Assembly: GCA_945862265.1 (NCBI GenBank) | Contig: CAMAXP010000008.1 | Coordinates: forward strand, 543 to 64,542 | Length of the DNA: 64,000 nt | Direction of reading: 5' to 3' | Origin: Bordetella parapertussis | GTDB taxonomy: Bacteria; Pseudomonadota; Gammaproteobacteria; Burkholderiales; SG8-39 | Shown here: piece after piece, positions 46,567 to 49,980 of the stretch | How positions within the stretch are numbered: position 1 is the first letter of the stretch | How the letters are laid out: every line of letters begins with the position of its first letter | Notes under the pieces: generated by a model | Told to the model about the DNA's origin: nothing | Databases searched by the model: none | What the model saw: the letters and a program-made list of their open reading frames with translations, nothing else | Translations under genes and position numbers: made by a program

Positions 46567-49500
46567 ATGTCTTCCGACTTCTTCAGCCTGTTCCGCCGCC
46601 GCGAGCCGCCCGTGATCCTGCAGACGGAGGAGGCCGAGTGCGGCCTTGCGTGCCTTGCGATGTGCGCCGCCGCGCTGGGCTACGAGACCGACCTGCTGAT
46701 GCTGCGGCAGCGCCACCCGGTCTCGCTCAAGGGCACCACGCTCGGGCGGCTGGTCGAGATCGCGGCGGACCTCAAGCTCAACGCGCGCGCGGTACGCCTC
46801 GAGGTCGAGGAACTGTCCCGGCTGTCCCTTCCCTGCATCCTGCACTGGGAGCTCAACCACTTCGTGGTGCTGGTAGAGGTGAACTCCCGCGGCATCGTCG
46901 TCAACGACCCGGCGCTCGGACGGCGGCAGTACTCGATGGAAGAGGTCGGCAAGCGCTTTTCCGGCGTGGCGATGGAGTTGTCGCCGCGCGCCGATTTCCA
47001 GCCCAAGGTCGAGCGCACGCGCCTGGATCTGCGTGCGTTCTTCGACAACCAGCCGGGCCTGGCGAGCGCCTTCACGCAGGTGTTGCTGCTGTCGCTGGCC
47101 CTGGAGTCTTTCGGCATCCTGCTGCCGCTGATCAACCAGTGGCTGATCGACGACGTGGTCGTGACGGGCGACCTGAACCTGCTGATCGTATTGTCGGTCG
47201 CGATTTTCCTTTTGCTGGTCACGCTGACCGTGACCCGCATGTTGCGCGGGTGGGTGCTGCTGGCGGCCTCCATTACCTGGAACCTGCGCACCAGTTCGAG
47301 CGTGTTCCAGCACCTGGTGCGGCTGCCGGTGTCGTTCTTCGAGAAGCGGCACGTGGGCGACGTGCTGTCGCGGTTCCGCTCGGTGGACGAGATCCAAGGC
47401 ACGATCAGCGGCAATTTCATCGAGACCATCCTCGACGGCCTGATGGCGGTGATCGCGCTGACGATGATGGTCATCTACAGCCCCAAGCTCGCCGGCATCG
47501 CAGTGCTTGCCGGCATCGGCTATGTGCTCGTGCGGTTCGCGATGTTCGGCCGGTATCGGGCGGCGACGGAGGAGCGCATCGTGCGCTCCGCCACGCGCGA
47601 TTCGTTCCTGTACGAAACCCTGCGCGGCATTCCGGCGATCAAGTTTTTTTCCCAGATCGGCTGGCAGGTGGCCGGCTGGATGAACCGCCAGGTCGCCGTC
47701 TACAACGCGACCATCGTCACGCGCAAGCTCGACCTGGTCTACCAGGGCGCCAACGGGCTGATCCGGGCGCTGGAGAACTCGCTGATCCTGTTCCTGACCA
47801 TCGGCATGATCCTGGAGAAGTCTTACACGATCGGCATGATGATCGCGTTCCTGGCCTTCAAGGAGCAGTTCCTCACCCGCGTGGTGGCGCTGGCCGACCG
47901 CCTCGCGCGCTTCCGCCTGCTGCGCCTGCAGGCCGAGCGCCTGTCCGACATTGTGCTCACCGAGCCCGAGAACGAGCAGCCGCTCGCCGACCACATGCGT
48001 ATCGACCGCGACGGCCCGATCGAGATCGAGTTGCGCGGCGTCTCGTTCCGCTACGCGCCCGGCGAGGACGAGGTGATCCGCAACATCAGCTTCAAGCTTA
48101 CGACGACCGATTCGATCGCCATCGTCGGGCCCTCGGGCTGCGGCAAGTCCACGCTGATGAAGATCGTGTCGGGAGTCCTCAAGCCCGAAGAAGGCGAGGT
48201 GCTGGTGAACGGCATCCCGGTCTCGAGCATCGGCACGGCCACCTACCGCAGCCTGATCGGCACCGTGATGCAGGAAGACCACCTGTTCTCGGGCTCGATC
48301 TTCGACAACATCTCGATGTTCGACAGCGCGCCGGACGACGAGCGGGTGGCGCTGGCGGCCAGGCGCGCGATGATCCACGACGACATCGTGATCATGCCGA
48401 TGGGCTACCAGTCGCTGGTCGGCGGCATGGGGACCAACCTGTCCGGCGGCCAGAAGCAGCGCATCCTGCTCGCGCGGGCGCTGTACAAGGAACCGCGGTT
48501 CCTGTTCCTCGACGAATACACGAGCATGCTCGACTACGACACCGAGATGGCGGTGCAGAATTCGCTCGCCTCGCTACCCATCGGCCGCTTCGTGATCACG
48601 CACCGGCGGCGGAACCTCCTGCCCCAGGACCGGGTCTTCGTGGTGTGGGAGGGCGGGATACTCCCGGGCCACGAGTTCGACCGGATGTTCACGCGGCTCG
48701 GGGACCCGACCGCGGCGGCGCGGCACGGGGCGGGGTCCAAGGGCACGGCGCTCAAGGTGGTCTTTGCCTCTGAGCTGGGCGGCGCCCTGGGCCACCTGAC
48801 GCGGCAGGTGCCGATCGCGCTGCAGTTGCGCCGGCGCGGGCACGAGTTGCTGTTCGCCGTGCGCGATCCCTCTGCGGCCGAGGCGCTGCTTGCGCCGCAC
48901 CGGCTCGCCTGGGTCGCGGCCCCGCGCCCGGTGCTGACGCGGCCCCTGGCCGAGCACACCATGGTCTATGGGGACATCCTCGCCGAGGCGGGGTTTGCCG
49001 AGCCGGAGGCCCTGCTTGCGGTGGTGCGGGCATGGACGGACATCTTCCGGAACGCCGGGGCCGACGTCGTGGTCTGCGACCATTCGCCGGCCGCGCAGCT
49101 CGCCGCGCGCCTCGCCGGCCTGCCCACGGTGCAGATAGGCACCGGTTTCGAGTTGCCGCCGGAGGGCGATGCGCTCCCGGTCCTGCGCACGTGGGACGCT
49201 GCGGCCGCCGGCAAGCGTGCAGGGGTCGAAGCGGGCCTCCTCGCAGCCATCCGCCATGTGTGCGAGCAGTCCGGGCGCCCGCCGCTTGCGCGGCTGGCCG
49301 ACCTGTATGCCACCGACGCCCCCTTGCTGCTGACGATTCCCGAGGCCGATTGCTTCGCGCCGCGCGCCTCCGGGCGCTATCTCGGCCCGATCCATGATGT
49401 TGCGTTCGGCCGGAAGTTCGACTGGCCCTCCGGTAACCGGCGCATCTTCGCGTACCTCCGCCCGGAATACCTGCGCGGCCGCGAGTCGCTGCACGCGGTG

Positions 49501-49980
49501 CTCGACGGGTTGGCAAAAAGCGGCGCGGCCGTGCTGGCGTATGTTCCCGGTGCAGAAGACGACACGGTGGCTGCTTACACCACTGAATCCATGCGCGTGT
49601 TGCGCGAGCCCGTACGCCTCGCGTCTGTGCTCGGGGACGCCGATCTCGCGGTCAGCAACGCGGGCAATGCCGTGCTGAACCTTTGCCTGCTCTCCGGTGT
49701 GCCGATGCTGCTGCTGCCGTTCCATTTCGAGCAGCGCCTCGCGGCCCTCCGTGCCGAGTCCACGGGCGCCGTGCGCTGGATCCTGAACGATGCGGTCGTG
49801 GCGTCGTTCGGTCCGGTGCTTGCCGAGATGCTCGCCTCGGGCGTTTATTCTGCCCAGGCGCGTGCCGTCGCCAAGAGGAACGCGGGCTACAATGTGGATC
49901 GTGTCGTCGCAACGGTGGCAGACATCGTCGAAGCTGTCGCCGTACCCGGCGGCGACGCCACCGACGCGAGGCACCCATGA
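46567..49980 (+). CDS. C39-peptidase bacteriocin ABC exporter (CvaB-like, aa ~1-700) fused in frame to a GT-B/GT1 glycosyltransferase domain (aa ~729-1137)
   Basis: PVILQTEEAECGLACLAM (catalytic Cys), HWELNHFVVL (His), a six-TM domain, GPSGCGKST, LSGGQKQR, FLFLDE and ITHR. With no stop codon the frame continues into KVVFASELGGALGHL...RRRGHE ... VSNAGNAVLNLCLLSGVPMLLLPFHFEQ. Confidence 0.85.
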   Translation: MSSDFFSLFRRREPPVILQTEEAECGLACLAMCAAALGYETDLLMLRQRHPVSLKGTTLGRLVEIAADLKLNARAVRLEVEELSRLSLPCILHWELNHFVVLVEVNSRGIVVNDPALGRRQYSMEEVGKRFSGVAMELSPRADFQPKVERTRLDLRAFFDNQPGLASAFTQVLLLSLALESFGILLPLINQWLIDDVVVTGDLNLLIVLSVAIFLLLVTLTVTRMLRGWVLLAASITWNLRTSSSVFQHLVRLPVSFFEKRHVGDVLSRFRSVDEIQGTISGNFIETILDGLMAVIALTMMVIYSPKLAGIAVLAGIGYVLVRFAMFGRYRAATEERIVRSATRDSFLYETLRGIPAIKFFSQIGWQVAGWMNRQVAVYNATIVTRKLDLVYQGANGLIRALENSLILFLTIGMILEKSYTIGMMIAFLAFKEQFLTRVVALADRLARFRLLRLQAERLSDIVLTEPENEQPLADHMRIDRDGPIEIELRGVSFRYAPGEDEVIRNISFKLTTTDSIAIVGPSGCGKSTLMKIVSGVLKPEEGEVLVNGIPVSSIGTATYRSLIGTVMQEDHLFSGSIFDNISMFDSAPDDERVALAARRAMIHDDIVIMPMGYQSLVGGMGTNLSGGQKQRILLARALYKEPRFLFLDEYTSMLDYDTEMAVQNSLASLPIGRFVITHRRRNLLPQDRVFVVWEGGILPGHEFDRMFTRLGDPTAAARHGAGSKGTALKVVFASELGGALGHLTRQVPIALQLRRRGHELLFAVRDPSAAEALLAPHRLAWVAAPRPVLTRPLAEHTMVYGDILAEAGFAEPEALLAVVRAWTDIFRNAGADVVVCDHSPAAQLAARLAGLPTVQIGTGFELPPEGDALPVLRTWDAAAAGKRAGVEAGLLAAIRHVCEQSGRPPLARLADLYATDAPLLLTIPEADCFAPRASGRYLGPIHDVAFGRKFDWPSGNRRIFAYLRPEYLRGRESLHAVLDGLAKSGAAVLAYVPGAEDDTVAAYTTESMRVLREPVRLASVLGDADLAVSNAGNAVLNLCLLSGVPMLLLPFHFEQRLAALRAESTGAVRWILNDAVVASFGPVLAEMLASGVYSAQARAVAKRNAGYNVDRVVATVADIVEAVAVPGGDATDARHP

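Follow-up and report, generated by a model that had tools for sequence, protein, structure and literature searches.

Fusion of a peptidase-containing ABC exporter to a GT1 glycosyltransferase in a predicted peptide secretion operon

A single gene in the window (the whole stretch of 64,000 nucleotides that was analyzed) unites a leader-cleaving peptide pump with a sugar-adding enzyme. Its uninterrupted codons specify a complete peptidase-containing ABC exporter (PCAT), a short linker and a GT1-type glycosyltransferase (GT), and the gene product is probably a single bifunctional inner-membrane protein. Assembly error does not account for the fusion, which selection maintains within a small clade of Burkholderiales. 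Its occurrence and selection there suggest that sugar is added to a secreted peptide at the pump, shortly before export. The in-frame fusion of a CvaB-type PCAT and a GT-B glycosyltransferase had been claimed in a sequence-only reading of this DNA, and it is borne out by the stop-free ORF, the Pfam matches, the GT fold and the recurrence of the fusion in other lineages. Features of the locus are summarized in Table 1.

Table 1. Coordinates of the fusion gene, its domains and the other features of the operon (positions within the window)
Feature	Position	Strand	Evidence
PCAT exporter-GT1 glycosyltransferase fusion gene	46567..49980	+	One ORF, 1137 aa, no internal stop
C39 cysteine-peptidase domain (aa 15-142; Q19, C25, H98, D114)	46609..46992	+	Pfam Peptidase_C39, E 2e-31
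ABC exporter transmembrane domain (aa 172-438), six long helices	47080..47880	+	Pfam ABC_membrane, E 4.5e-28
Nucleotide-binding domain and C-terminal tail (aa 505-718)	48079..48720	+	Pfam ABC_tran, aa 505-652, E 3.6e-29
Ten-codon linker RHGAGSKGTA (aa 719-728)	48721..48750	+	Pairwise alignments: end of exporter homology to first GT residue
GT1/GT-B glycosyltransferase domain (aa 729-1137, 409 residues)	48751..49977	+	Homologues, profile, AlphaFold, Foldseek
Sigma-70-like promoter candidate TTGACC-18-TACAAT	43506..43535	+	Consensus scan, 10/12 matches, ~50 nt upstream of precursor gene
Precursor peptide gene, 79 aa	43588..43827	+	ORF listing; double-glycine leader
Hairpin and U-run between precursor stop and next ATG	43900..43928	+	RNA fold -17 kcal/mol, z = -2.8
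TolC-like outer-membrane efflux protein (OEP), 454 aa	43929..45293	+	Pfam OEP, E 1e-36
HlyD-family membrane-fusion protein, 415 aa	45310..46557	+	Pfam HlyD_3, HlyD_D23, Biotin_lipoyl_2
Amidohydro_2-family gene, 292 aa	49977..50855	+	Pfam Amidohydro_2, E 2.8e-50

Architecture of the fusion gene

The exporter half (aa 1-718) comprises a C39 peptidase, a six-helix membrane domain and a nucleotide-binding domain. Every motif quoted in the sequence-only reading was found in the translation: QTEEAEC25 and HWELNHF, which hold C25 and H98 of the C39 domain, Walker A (GPSGCGKST), the signature (LSGGQKQR), Walker B (FLFLDE) and the H-loop (ITHR). H98 is invariant in alignment A5, and D114 follows it by 16 residues. 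The expected Pfam matches to Peptidase_C39, ABC_membrane and ABC_tran were likewise all obtained. In the structure model of the full-length protein, which does not resolve the GT part, six long helices span aa 165-463, with pLDDT >90 for most of that stretch. Unfused relatives terminate at the end of the nucleotide-binding-domain tail (aa 718); the 720-aa exporter of L001, for example, aligns with aa 1-718 and then ends. NCBIfam equivalog scores are well under the cut-off (447 vs 853 for TIGR03796), so the exporter is a family-level relative and not an orthologue of any named exporter. Close relatives are annotated as RaxB-like at JGI.

Assignment of the remaining 409 residues rests on homologues, the family profile and the predicted fold, because the Pfam GT models miss their threshold. 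A GT-type Pfam match had been expected at aa ~729-1137; with the window protein alone, Glyco_tran_28_C stayed sub-threshold (E 0.08), but the GT fold was supported otherwise. The extension matches stand-alone GT1 proteins with 48% identity (E 5e-103), and the GT family profile matches CalG1, YjiC and OleD in the PDB (E 1e-19 to 1e-14). The AlphaFold model of the domain (pLDDT 92.1, pTM 0.90) superposes in Foldseek over its full length on GT1 natural-product glycosyltransferases, including CalG1 and OleD (probability 1.0, TM 0.62-0.72). Profile, AlphaFold and Foldseek all give a GT fold, the absence of which had been named in advance as a ground for rejecting the fusion.

Within the GT family alignment (A2), E8, G10, G14 and H15 are near-invariant and G316, P318, P323 and E327 invariant; the window protein keeps them all. 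The putative catalytic His lies in ELGGALGH, at about aa 743, and the donor-site motif is NAGNAV...SGVPMLLLPFHFEQ, with E-Q; both are retained in all three fused lineages. By sequence, fold and comparison this half is an intact GT1 glycosyltransferase, with predicted activity.

GC3 is 0.9-1.0 in the fusion frame throughout the junction (48600-48850), and the GC3 signal changes frame only at ~49950, the start of the next gene. The linker is part of a segment of ~20 residues with predicted disorder (pLDDT <50 for aa 712-731), which tethers the GT to the C-terminus of the cytoplasmic nucleotide-binding domain. The first GT residue, L729, aligns with Met1 of stand-alone homologues, and its codon is CTC both in the window and in L020, a syntenic fused locus. 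A stand-alone GT start had been suggested at the in-frame ATG 48685. This was rejected as implausible, because the codon encodes the Met of EFDRMF, a motif of the conserved exporter tail that is also present in unfused relatives. The sole credible internal start is GTG 48757, two codons inside the GT.

The precursor peptide and neighbouring genes

The fusion gene belongs to a five-gene operon (43588-50855), with a uvrA-like gene upstream and dinB downstream. The Ser/Thr-rich precursor that the sequence-only reading assumed is present, with a canonical double-glycine leader. This leader, MRNLTPEEMLQVSGG, with a predicted cut after GG, carries V at -4, M at -7, E at -8 and L at -12, as in PCAT substrates (consensus quoted in PMC12457901). 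The 64-aa core, RGRHRGRGSYGSGHGSNHGSSHGSSHGSSHGSGCGGTTVTPPPPPPPPTGGGTGGGTGYGTSTP, is rich in Gly (G21 S11 P9 T8 H6), and 19 of its residues are Ser or Thr; the peptide contains one Cys and is of low complexity (Gly/Ser/His/Pro). Homologous precursors are encoded at the same position in related cassettes (P0168-P0172 and L020:5022-5231). The promoter candidate is a weak pattern match, one site having been found where 0.9 were expected by chance. By analogy with bacteriocin operons, the hairpin downstream of the precursor gene probably serves as a partial terminator or attenuator; 3 of 200 shuffled sequences equalled it in folding.

By sequence and comparison, the PCAT and the HlyD-like and TolC-like proteins encoded just upstream of it constitute a type I secretion route. 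The ATG of the Amidohydro_2 gene and the fusion-gene TGA overlap (ATGA). This gene is missing from the syntenic locus L020, and its product is only 28% identical, across 92 aa, to the Amidohydro_2 protein encoded beside the L001 cassette. On sequence grounds, it is co-transcribed here and is not a conserved member of the cassette. No immunity gene was seen; the peptide may be a bacteriocin, a signal or a metal binder.

Conservation and origin of the fusion

Fused relatives are P0173, P0174 and P0175. With the window included there are three fused lineages: two diverged ones share the architecture with 83% identity in the exporter and 62% in the GT, and P0174 (1135 aa) represents the third of the three. 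For P0175 (1131 aa), two different samples each yielded an assembly. The extension is not the non-conserved read-through that had been considered, as orthologues with the same fusion exist in diverged relatives under purifying selection (dN/dS, window vs L020: 0.21 for the exporter, 0.29 for the GT). The same comparison gives ~1.4 across 22 codons for the linker. Between EFDRMF and LKVVF the three fused lineages have 20, 20 and 19 residues of varying sequence, with one 3-nt indel and the frame kept in each. Retention of the frame in spite of the altered sequence and the one-codon length difference argues that the fusion has been selected.

The fused proteins group into one clade when their exporter parts are placed in a neighbour-joining tree, which indicates that the fusion arose once. 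P0176 and P0177, which are sister lineages, carry the cassette too, and at the same chromosomal site, but without any GT; the GT is therefore dispensable for export. As the sequence-only reading stated of known systems, more distant relatives divide these functions among separate genes, encoding the exporter, a degenerate GT and an active GT. These split cassettes, found in metagenome-assembled genomes of Betaproteobacteria (L001/L010, the P0003 contig, L014 and L015), comprise precursor, OEP, HlyD, PCAT, GT-A and GT-B genes, those shared with the window standing in the same order, and have a homologous precursor with a MRELKPEEYFQVSGG leader and an (HGS)n core. Identity to the window, as in L001, is 51-56% for OEP, 62% for HlyD (of equal length in L001), 74% for PCAT and 48% for GT-B. 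Their PCAT stops at ~aa 720 and is followed by the degenerate paralogue GT-A, in which the conserved His and the AG motif are lost and EG replaces EQ, and then by the active GT-B. The window, in contrast, has no GT-A, and its GT, which clusters with the intact GT-B clade and not with GT-A, is covalently fused.

An orthologous GT lies directly 3′ of the PCAT, in a cassette with a homologous precursor, on four related contigs from different samples. Elsewhere, the same GT subfamily occurs within or next to type I secretion loci, beside RTX giants and in a Ralstonia ABC-HlyD-OEP-GT operon. Both patterns speak for a functional connection of GT and exporter.

Proposed function

The function we favour as most likely is glycosylation of the peptide by the pump-tethered GT prior to leader cleavage and type I export. 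The double-glycine leader of the 79-aa precursor would be bound by the cytoplasmic C39 domain, and the tethered GT would use a nucleotide sugar to glycosylate Ser or Thr residues of the core, likely in the (HGS)n repeats or the Thr-rich tail. The leader would then be cleaved after GG and the glycopeptide exported via the HlyD and TolC-like proteins. In ABC exporters, the nucleotide-binding and C39 domains are located in the cytoplasm, where nucleotide sugars occur. It is plausible that glycosylation would be coupled both to cleavage and to export.

It is unlikely, though worth weighing, that the GT modifies another target, such as a small molecule later joined to the peptide, a lipid or another compound that is exported, or a target in self-protection. 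Its nearest solved relatives (CalG1, OleD, YjiC and SpnG) are small-molecule natural-product GTs, macrolide GTs have a self-protection role, the GT1 enzyme MceC/IroB of siderophore-microcin loci acts on enterobactin and not on a peptide, and one family member, P0014, lies between ruvC and a UbiA prenyltransferase gene with no secretion genes close by. However, no MceD-, MceI- or MceJ-like or siderophore genes were found in the operon or its immediate neighbours (the rest of the window was partly scanned), and a tblastn search with the GT against 72,556 plasmids gave 17 records; the 15 listed, Ralstonia or Pseudomonas relatives with 31-37% identity, include no IroB/MceC carrier. Moreover, the GT subfamily repeatedly adjoins ribosomal type I secretion substrates, and a tether on a peptide-specific exporter makes most sense with a peptide as acceptor.

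Improbable, too, is that internal initiation at GTG 48757 yields a free GT that does the work, the tethered form being incidental or minor. The codon is in frame, two codons past the Met1 position of stand-alone homologues, it is kept in L020, the GT homologue P0012 has its apparent start at the equivalent residue, and AAGGG is located 13 nt upstream. The position of AAGGG is not conserved in L020, however, and since the exporter ORF has no stop, each full-length exporter bears a GT. Retention of the linker frame in three lineages despite sequence turnover and the 3-nt indel would be needless if the free form sufficed.

A catalytically dead GT domain that would merely dock or chaperone the precursor is very improbable: the degenerate GT-A of the split relatives indicates that non-catalytic GT-like modules exist in such cassettes, but the fused domain falls in the intact GT-B clade, retains every family-invariant residue and has the low dN/dS given above.

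A sequencing or assembly artefact hiding two genes is effectively refuted already: two GGGG runs in the linker (48727-48730 and 48732-48735) and nearby out-of-frame stops (48771-48773 and 48797-48799) mean that one indel error could mimic a fusion, but the missed stop or frameshift for which a check had been proposed is contradicted by a junction common to at least 11 distinct 1137-aa variants (98-99% identical, linker identical) on separate contigs of independent assemblies in NCBI and ENA, by in-frame fusions in two lineages with different linker sequences, by the G- or C-ending of all 14 codons from A718 to V731 (48718-48759, linker included), as in the codon bias of the genome, and by neighbouring cassette genes that are full length relative to their homologues.

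Comparison with known systems

The exporter half resembles the PCATs of colicin V and class II microcin export (CvaA-CvaB-TolC) as well as ComA, LagD and PCAT1 in its N-terminal C39 domain (Gln/Cys/His/Asp), six-helix membrane domain and nucleotide-binding domain, in the Gly-rich double-glycine-leader substrate encoded beside it and in its HlyD-type and TolC-type partners. It differs in the complete 409-residue GT1 enzyme on its C-terminus and in the TolC-like gene within the operon.

Siderophore-microcins (MccE492, H47 and M) are Gly/Ser-rich double-glycine-leader peptides of Gram-negative bacteria, with a CvaB-type PCAT and the GT1-family MceC/IroB in the locus, features shared with the window. 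There, the GT C-glucosylates enterobactin, which MceI/J then link to the C-terminal Ser of the peptide. That GT is a separate protein, whereas the window GT is fused, and the window cassette and its immediate neighbours lack the Mce and siderophore genes named above.

Glycocins are ribosomal peptides that are glycosylated in the cytoplasm with the leader attached and are then cleaved and exported by a PCAT (PMC12457901). The route proposed for the window is alike to that of sublancin (SunA/SunS/SunT), glycocin F, thurandacin and the newer thermoglycocin and orniglycocin. Glycocin enzymes are Firmicutes GT2 (GT-A fold) S/O-glycosyltransferases acting on disulfide-stapled helical peptides, whereas the window has a GT1 (GT-B fold) enzyme fused to the exporter, a Gram-negative host, three-component secretion and a low-complexity peptide with one Cys.

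The RaxX system of Xanthomonas (RaxST-RaxA-RaxB) likewise pairs, in a Gram-negative operon, a tailoring enzyme with a PCAT and a membrane-fusion protein, and its double-glycine-leader peptide is modified before export; there, a stand-alone sulfotransferase sulfates tyrosine, as opposed to a pump-fused glycosyltransferase. With GT1 natural-product enzymes (CalG1, OleD/MGT, YjiC, EryCIII and SpnG) the window GT shares the full-length GT-B fold, the N-terminal G-x-x-G-H loop and the C-terminal nucleotide-sugar motif with its E-Q end. Identity to them is only 15-23%, and the window GT differs in belonging to a distinct subfamily beside type I secretion genes, in being a domain of a membrane transporter and in its expected acceptor, a peptide.

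No description of an exporter-GT fusion was found in the literature searched, in agreement with what the sequence-only reading had stated. The fusion protein is already deposited under generic names, e.g. NCBI MFM9981544.1.

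Exporter half of the fusion protein

Peptidase-containing ABC transporters (PCATs) are the standard bacterial route by which bacteriocins, microcins and peptide signals are cut and exported. The gene at 46567..49980 (+), in which the sequence-only reading had recognized a CvaB-type exporter fused to a GT-B glycosyltransferase (GT), is a single ORF of 1137 codons without internal stops, and the analysis presented here supports that interpretation. Since the genome is GC-rich, spurious long ORFs are common in it. The coding signature spans the entire length of this ORF: GC3 is 0.9-1.0 in the fusion frame across the putative junction (48600-48850), and the signal changes frame only at about 49950, at the start of the next gene.

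The three exporter domains expected from the sequence (Peptidase_C39, ABC_membrane and ABC_tran) were all matched above the Pfam gathering scores, and each of the motifs attributed to this half was located in the translation, namely GPSGCGKST (Walker A), LSGGQKQR (signature), FLFLDE (Walker B) and ITHR (H-loop). The complete C39 peptidase set (Q19, C25, H98 and D114) could also be read from the fusion protein, H98 being invariant in the exporter family alignment. The full-length AlphaFold model resolved the exporter, with six long helices in its membrane domain, and a disordered linker; the GT part was not resolved. By sequence, the exporter half has every testable defining feature of a PCAT, and its cleavage and export activity is predicted.

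Coordinates of the features distinguished in the window and in related contigs
Feature	Position	Remarks
Gene for UvrA-like protein, 1889 aa	37718-43387 (-)	divergent from the cassette
Promoter-like site	43506-43535	upstream of the precursor gene
Precursor gene, 79 aa	43588..43827	double-glycine leader ...EEMLQVSGG
Stable hairpin with U-run	43900-43928	between precursor and export genes
TolC-like gene (OEP)	43929-45293	after the hairpin
HlyD-like gene	45310-46557	between OEP and fusion gene
Peptidase_C39 (PF03412)	aa 15-142	Pfam E 2e-31, above gathering score
ABC_membrane (PF00664)	aa 172-438	Pfam 99 bits, above cut-off
ABC_tran (PF00005)	aa 505-652	Pfam 102 bits, above cut-off
Amidohydro_2 gene	49977-50855	ATG overlaps the fusion gene TGA (ATGA)
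Low-GC patch	51900-52800	GC 0.48-0.54 vs about 0.67 elsewhere; strong positive GC skew
160-aa ORF	52248-52730	in the low-GC patch, just 3′ of dinB; no Pfam match
GT-A genes of split cassettes	L001:6733-8004; L015:104-1543; 403-aa gene on the P0003 contig	directly after the exporter
Members of the GT1 subfamily	L005:308-1534; L008/L009:8001-9278; L011:1911-3140; L013:6001-7224; L022:9001-10170	31-41% identical to the window GT

C-terminal glycosyltransferase domain

The C-terminal 409 residues match stand-alone proteins of 387-425 aa (best E 5e-103, 48% identity). Most of these homologues carry precomputed matches to EryCIII-like_C (PF06722) or Glyco_tran_28_C (PF04101), as do P0174 (1135 aa) and P0175 (1131 aa), two diverged fused relatives. 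The Pfam match foreseen for this part was found in the window protein itself only below threshold (PF04101, E 0.08, 13 bits against a cut-off of 22); it is the homologues, the family profile and the predicted fold that support a GT1 assignment. The TIGR01426 (MGT) model gave E 2e-8, but with 34 bits against a cut-off of 260, and no GT2 match was obtained in Pfam. A profile of the GT family (18 members) finds CalG1, YjiC, SsfS6 and OleD at 1e-19 to 1e-14.

An AlphaFold2 model of the GT domain, built on the family alignment (pLDDT 92.1, pTM 0.90), displays the two Rossmann-like domains of the GT-B fold. Along its whole length the model can be superposed on natural-product glycosyltransferases of family GT1 (Foldseek probability 1.0, TM 0.62-0.72), and the best 50 PDB matches are GT1 enzymes without exception. 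The N-terminal loop E-x-G-x-x-x-G-H is present as ELGGALGH and the C-terminal donor motif G-V-P...P...E-Q as SGVPMLLLPFHFEQ. The motif columns are invariant or nearly so among the 18 family members and are kept in P0174 and P0175; catalytic roles of the His and of the donor-motif residues are assigned by analogy. Given the fold, the homologues and the conserved residues, the extension is a complete and apparently intact GT-B glycosyltransferase with predicted activity, in line with the fold that had been proposed.

Junction between the two halves

The 720-aa unfused exporter of a betaproteobacterial MAG (L001) is 74% identical to the window protein, aligns to its residues 1-718 and then ends, and Met1 of stand-alone GTs aligns with Leu729. 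Between them lie ten codons, RHGAGSKGTA (48721-48750), that belong to neither exporter nor GT. In the full-length model most of the exporter has pLDDT above 90 and residues 712-731 fall below 50, which is consistent with a flexible tether. The linker of the window protein is TRLGDPTAAARHGAGSKGTA (20 residues), and those of the two diverged fused lineages are AKLAEPSLPPAPAASGLRSG (20 residues) and TQLGQEKSDAPGAPTSDKA (19 residues). The three differ in sequence and include one 3-nt indel, their reading frame is intact, and in all of them the conserved LKVVFASE follows directly.

The ATG at 48685 had been suggested as a possible start of a stand-alone GT. This codon specifies the Met of EFDRMF, the conserved tail of the exporter that is also found in unfused relatives, and it is therefore no GT start. 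The only credible internal start is GTG 48757, two codons into the GT. The sequence AAGGG, 7 nt before CTC 48751, was considered as a possible remnant of a former ribosome-binding site and set aside, as its position is not conserved in L020, the locus of P0175. Synthesis of a free GT by internal initiation, for which this GTG would have to serve, fits the data less well than the action of a tethered enzyme.

Conservation of the fusion

Two GGGG runs in the linker could have created an apparent fusion by sequencing or assembly error; such an artefact is rejected in view of independent in-frame fusions. A search with the GT part retrieved stand-alone GTs of 387-425 aa only, and an exhaustive search of representatives with the full protein retrieved only exporters of about 720 aa. 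With the exporter part as query, each of the best three matches was a fused protein (1137, 1135 and 1131 aa). The word-indexed GT-part search and the search of 50% representatives had missed these relatives, including one 99% identical, and in the representative library, clustered at 50% identity, an unfused protein had probably stood in for them. As two query designs missed them, negatives from one query are not trustworthy alone. Scans of genome and metagenome contigs with the GT retrieved GTs linked to RTX genes and the MAG of L001 type only, without a fused locus.

The 90% cluster of the 1137-aa fused protein has 30 members, with at least 11 distinct full-length sequences that are 98-99% identical and share the same linker. 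The variants come from separate contigs in NCBI and ENA, the longest measuring 114 kb; one of them, from a Burkholderiales MAG, is annotated in NCBI only as "cysteine peptidase family C39 domain-containing protein". P0175 was assembled from two different samples. The exporters of the two diverged lineages are 83% identical to that of the window, and the GT of P0175 is 62% identical. Nei-Gojobori comparison of the window with L020 gave dN/dS values of 0.21 for the exporter, 0.29 for the GT and about 1.4 for the linker (22 codons only), the pattern expected of two selected domains joined by an unconstrained tether with preserved frame. The fusion, first noticed in one sequence, thus recurs in independent assemblies and in diverged lineages, and we conclude with high confidence from these comparisons that it is genuine, conserved and selected.

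Operon structure and genomic neighbourhood

The substrate expected of a PCAT, a peptide with a double-glycine leader, is encoded nearby, with the OEP and HlyD genes in between. A hairpin between precursor and export genes is the usual arrangement in bacteriocin operons, and the window has one at this place. The precursor product starts with MRNLTPEEMLQVSGG, and its leader carries V at -4, M at -7, E at -8 and L at -12, positions that match the PCAT leader consensus quoted in PMC12457901. The 64-aa core contains 21 Gly, 11 Ser, 9 Pro, 8 Thr, 6 His and one Cys, arranged in (HGS)n repeats, a Pro8 run and a Thr/Gly tail. Homologous precursors lead the related cassettes (P0168-P0172 and L020:5022-5231), and the one at L020 also has a poly-Pro run.

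The overlap of the Amidohydro_2 gene with the fusion gene implies translational coupling. As a cassette member this gene was rejected: it is absent from L020 and, with only 28% identity over 92 aa, is unrelated to the Amidohydro_2 gene found upstream of the L001 cassette. By this comparison it is lineage-specific. Rfam and tRNA scans of the window gave no matches.

Canonical UvrA has roughly 940 aa, about half the length of the 1889-aa protein encoded divergently from the cassette, which comprises multiple UvrA-type ATPase, interaction and DNA-binding modules. This UvrA-like neighbour is conserved at L020 and at the locus of the unfused exporter P0176, with dinB on the other side of the cassette. 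The low-GC patch beyond the cassette may be foreign DNA.

Origin of the fusion

The orthologue comparison proposed in the sequence-only reading, of fused against split genes, revealed three fused lineages, unfused sisters and distant relatives with split genes. A neighbour-joining tree computed from the exporter parts unites the three fused proteins in one clade, which points to a single origin. L020 and the window are syntenic: a large UvrA-like gene lies on the minus strand, and the precursor, OEP, HlyD and fusion genes and dinB follow. P0176 (716 aa) is encoded at this chromosomal site too, flanked by the UvrA-like gene and dinB, and has no GT. The nearest unfused exporter, P0177 (731 aa), is likewise without a GT, and a RidA-type (Ribonuc_L-PSP) gene lies directly 3′ of it on the other strand. 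Its Pro/Ala/Gly-rich tail, ending in APADSAPPPPATGGQGKGAT (L023:4380-4446), resembles the fused linkers and stops where the GT would begin; it may be what is left of a GT domain since lost, or it may represent the state before fusion.

Separate genes in the order precursor, OEP, HlyD, PCAT, GT-A, GT-B make up the cassette in four contigs (L001/L010, the P0003 contig, L014 and L015), which come from different samples. GT-A has lost the conserved His (ELDGNREGL) and the AG motif, has EG for EQ and gives no Pfam match; with these motif losses it is probably a pseudo-glycosyltransferase. No GT-A is present in the window or in the fused lineages. That the GT domain of the fusion is non-catalytic, as GT-A probably is, fits less well, and the window GT clusters with GT-B, the clade that is intact. 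Read most simply, the cassette was ancestrally split, then lost GT-A and underwent one fusion, with the GT lost from or absent in the sister lineage. A DNA alignment with L001, made to look for a deletion from the exporter stop to the GT-B start, showed sequences too diverged to trace the mutational path.

Related glycosyltransferases beside type I secretion genes

The GT1 subfamily to which the window GT belongs recurs beside type I secretion substrates. In five contigs its members adjoin genes for giant RTX/cadherin-like proteins, and in four of these, all metagenomic (L008, L009, L011 and L013), they lie directly downstream. In Methylomonas lenta (L005) one small gene separates the GT gene from that for a 3087-aa RTX protein downstream of it, and on the Ralstonia solanacearum megaplasmid it closes an ABC(C39-like)-HlyD-OEP operon adjoining an RTX protein gene. 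From this distribution it seems that substrates of type I secretion have a dedicated GT family, of which we found no description.

Proposed function and relation to known systems

The nucleotide-binding (NBD) and C39 domains of ABC exporters are cytoplasmic, so a GT tethered to them would face the nucleotide-sugar pool and the incoming precursor. The precursor would be bound through its leader, its core glycosylated on Ser/Thr by the tethered GT, the chain cut after GG, and the glycosylated peptide released through HlyD and the TolC-like protein. That the GT would glycosylate the neighbouring peptide at the pump explains the data best and is, in our judgement, reasonably probable; the genetic link of GT clade, PCAT and precursor family is conserved, and circumstantial support comes from the position of the GT subfamily beside type I secretion substrates in other genomes.

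Action of the GT on a non-peptide acceptor, as in siderophore-microcins, fits less well. The cassette and the genes immediately next to it showed no MceD, MceI or MceJ gene, no IroB/MceC-type GT and no enterobactin esterase. When 72,556 plasmids were searched with the GT (tblastn, E ≤ 1e-3), 17 records matched; the best 15 were Ralstonia or Pseudomonas relatives and the other two Paracoccus and Sphingobium. Among the matches listed there was no iroB/mceC carrier; the enzymes may still be remote homologues within GT1. To judge from the genes of the cassette and its immediate surroundings and from the plasmid matches listed, this is not a siderophore-microcin system.

Nor is it a glycocin system, since glycocins (SunS/GccA type) use a GT2 S/O-glycosyltransferase of GT-A fold, whereas the window enzyme is a GT1 of GT-B fold. 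The inferred function resembles that of glycocins and of RaxX/RaxST-RaxB, in which a peptide is modified in the cytoplasm and then cleaved and exported by a PCAT; unlike in those systems, the modifying enzyme is part of the pump. Tailoring enzymes are normally separate proteins, and full-text literature searches, with subscription journals outside their coverage, yielded no described PCAT-glycosyltransferase fusion. The system combines known kinds, PCAT export and RiPP-type glycosylation, and is not a new category; it overturns no established principle and is of relevance to RiPP and ABC-transporter specialists.

At which point modification occurs with respect to cleavage and export is a practical question that RiPP biology has yet to settle. 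A selected natural exporter-GT fusion speaks for the possibility of physical coupling between the modification step and the pump, and it offers a single-polypeptide system in which coupling can be tested by comparing the tethered with an artificially split enzyme. Natural controls exist in the sister lineages without a GT and in distant relatives with split genes and a pseudo-GT. We speculate that GT-A of the split systems might bring GT-B into contact with the pump or with the peptide, a role that the covalent tether would take over.

Two groups are indicated by the data: a GT1 subfamily, so far undescribed, that accompanies type I secretion substrates, and an unstudied family of secreted Burkholderiales peptides with His-Gly-Ser repeats. 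A broader proposal would join four elements: a GT1 subfamily for type I substrates (double-glycine peptides and RTX giants), glycosylation on the transporter, O-glycosylated leader-cleaved peptides, and replacement of GT-A by the tether. To this combination we give somewhat less than an even chance; if true, it would define a new class of Gram-negative secreted peptides, GT1-made "glyco-microcins".

Other extended PCATs

The PCAT P0076 (1425 aa) carries a C-terminal beta-propeller and an HlyC-type RTX-toxin acyltransferase domain. Although no relative of the fusion protein, it parallels it as a second exporter joined to a tailoring enzyme; such fusions may represent a wider, unstudied theme. 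Two other long exporters were rejected as fusions: the extension of P0092 (1147 aa) is low-complexity sequence, not a GT, and P0026 has no recognizable extra domain. Four PCATs of Candidatus Thiodiazotropha (P0218, P0222, P0225 and P0238; 956-974 aa) are about 250 aa longer than usual.
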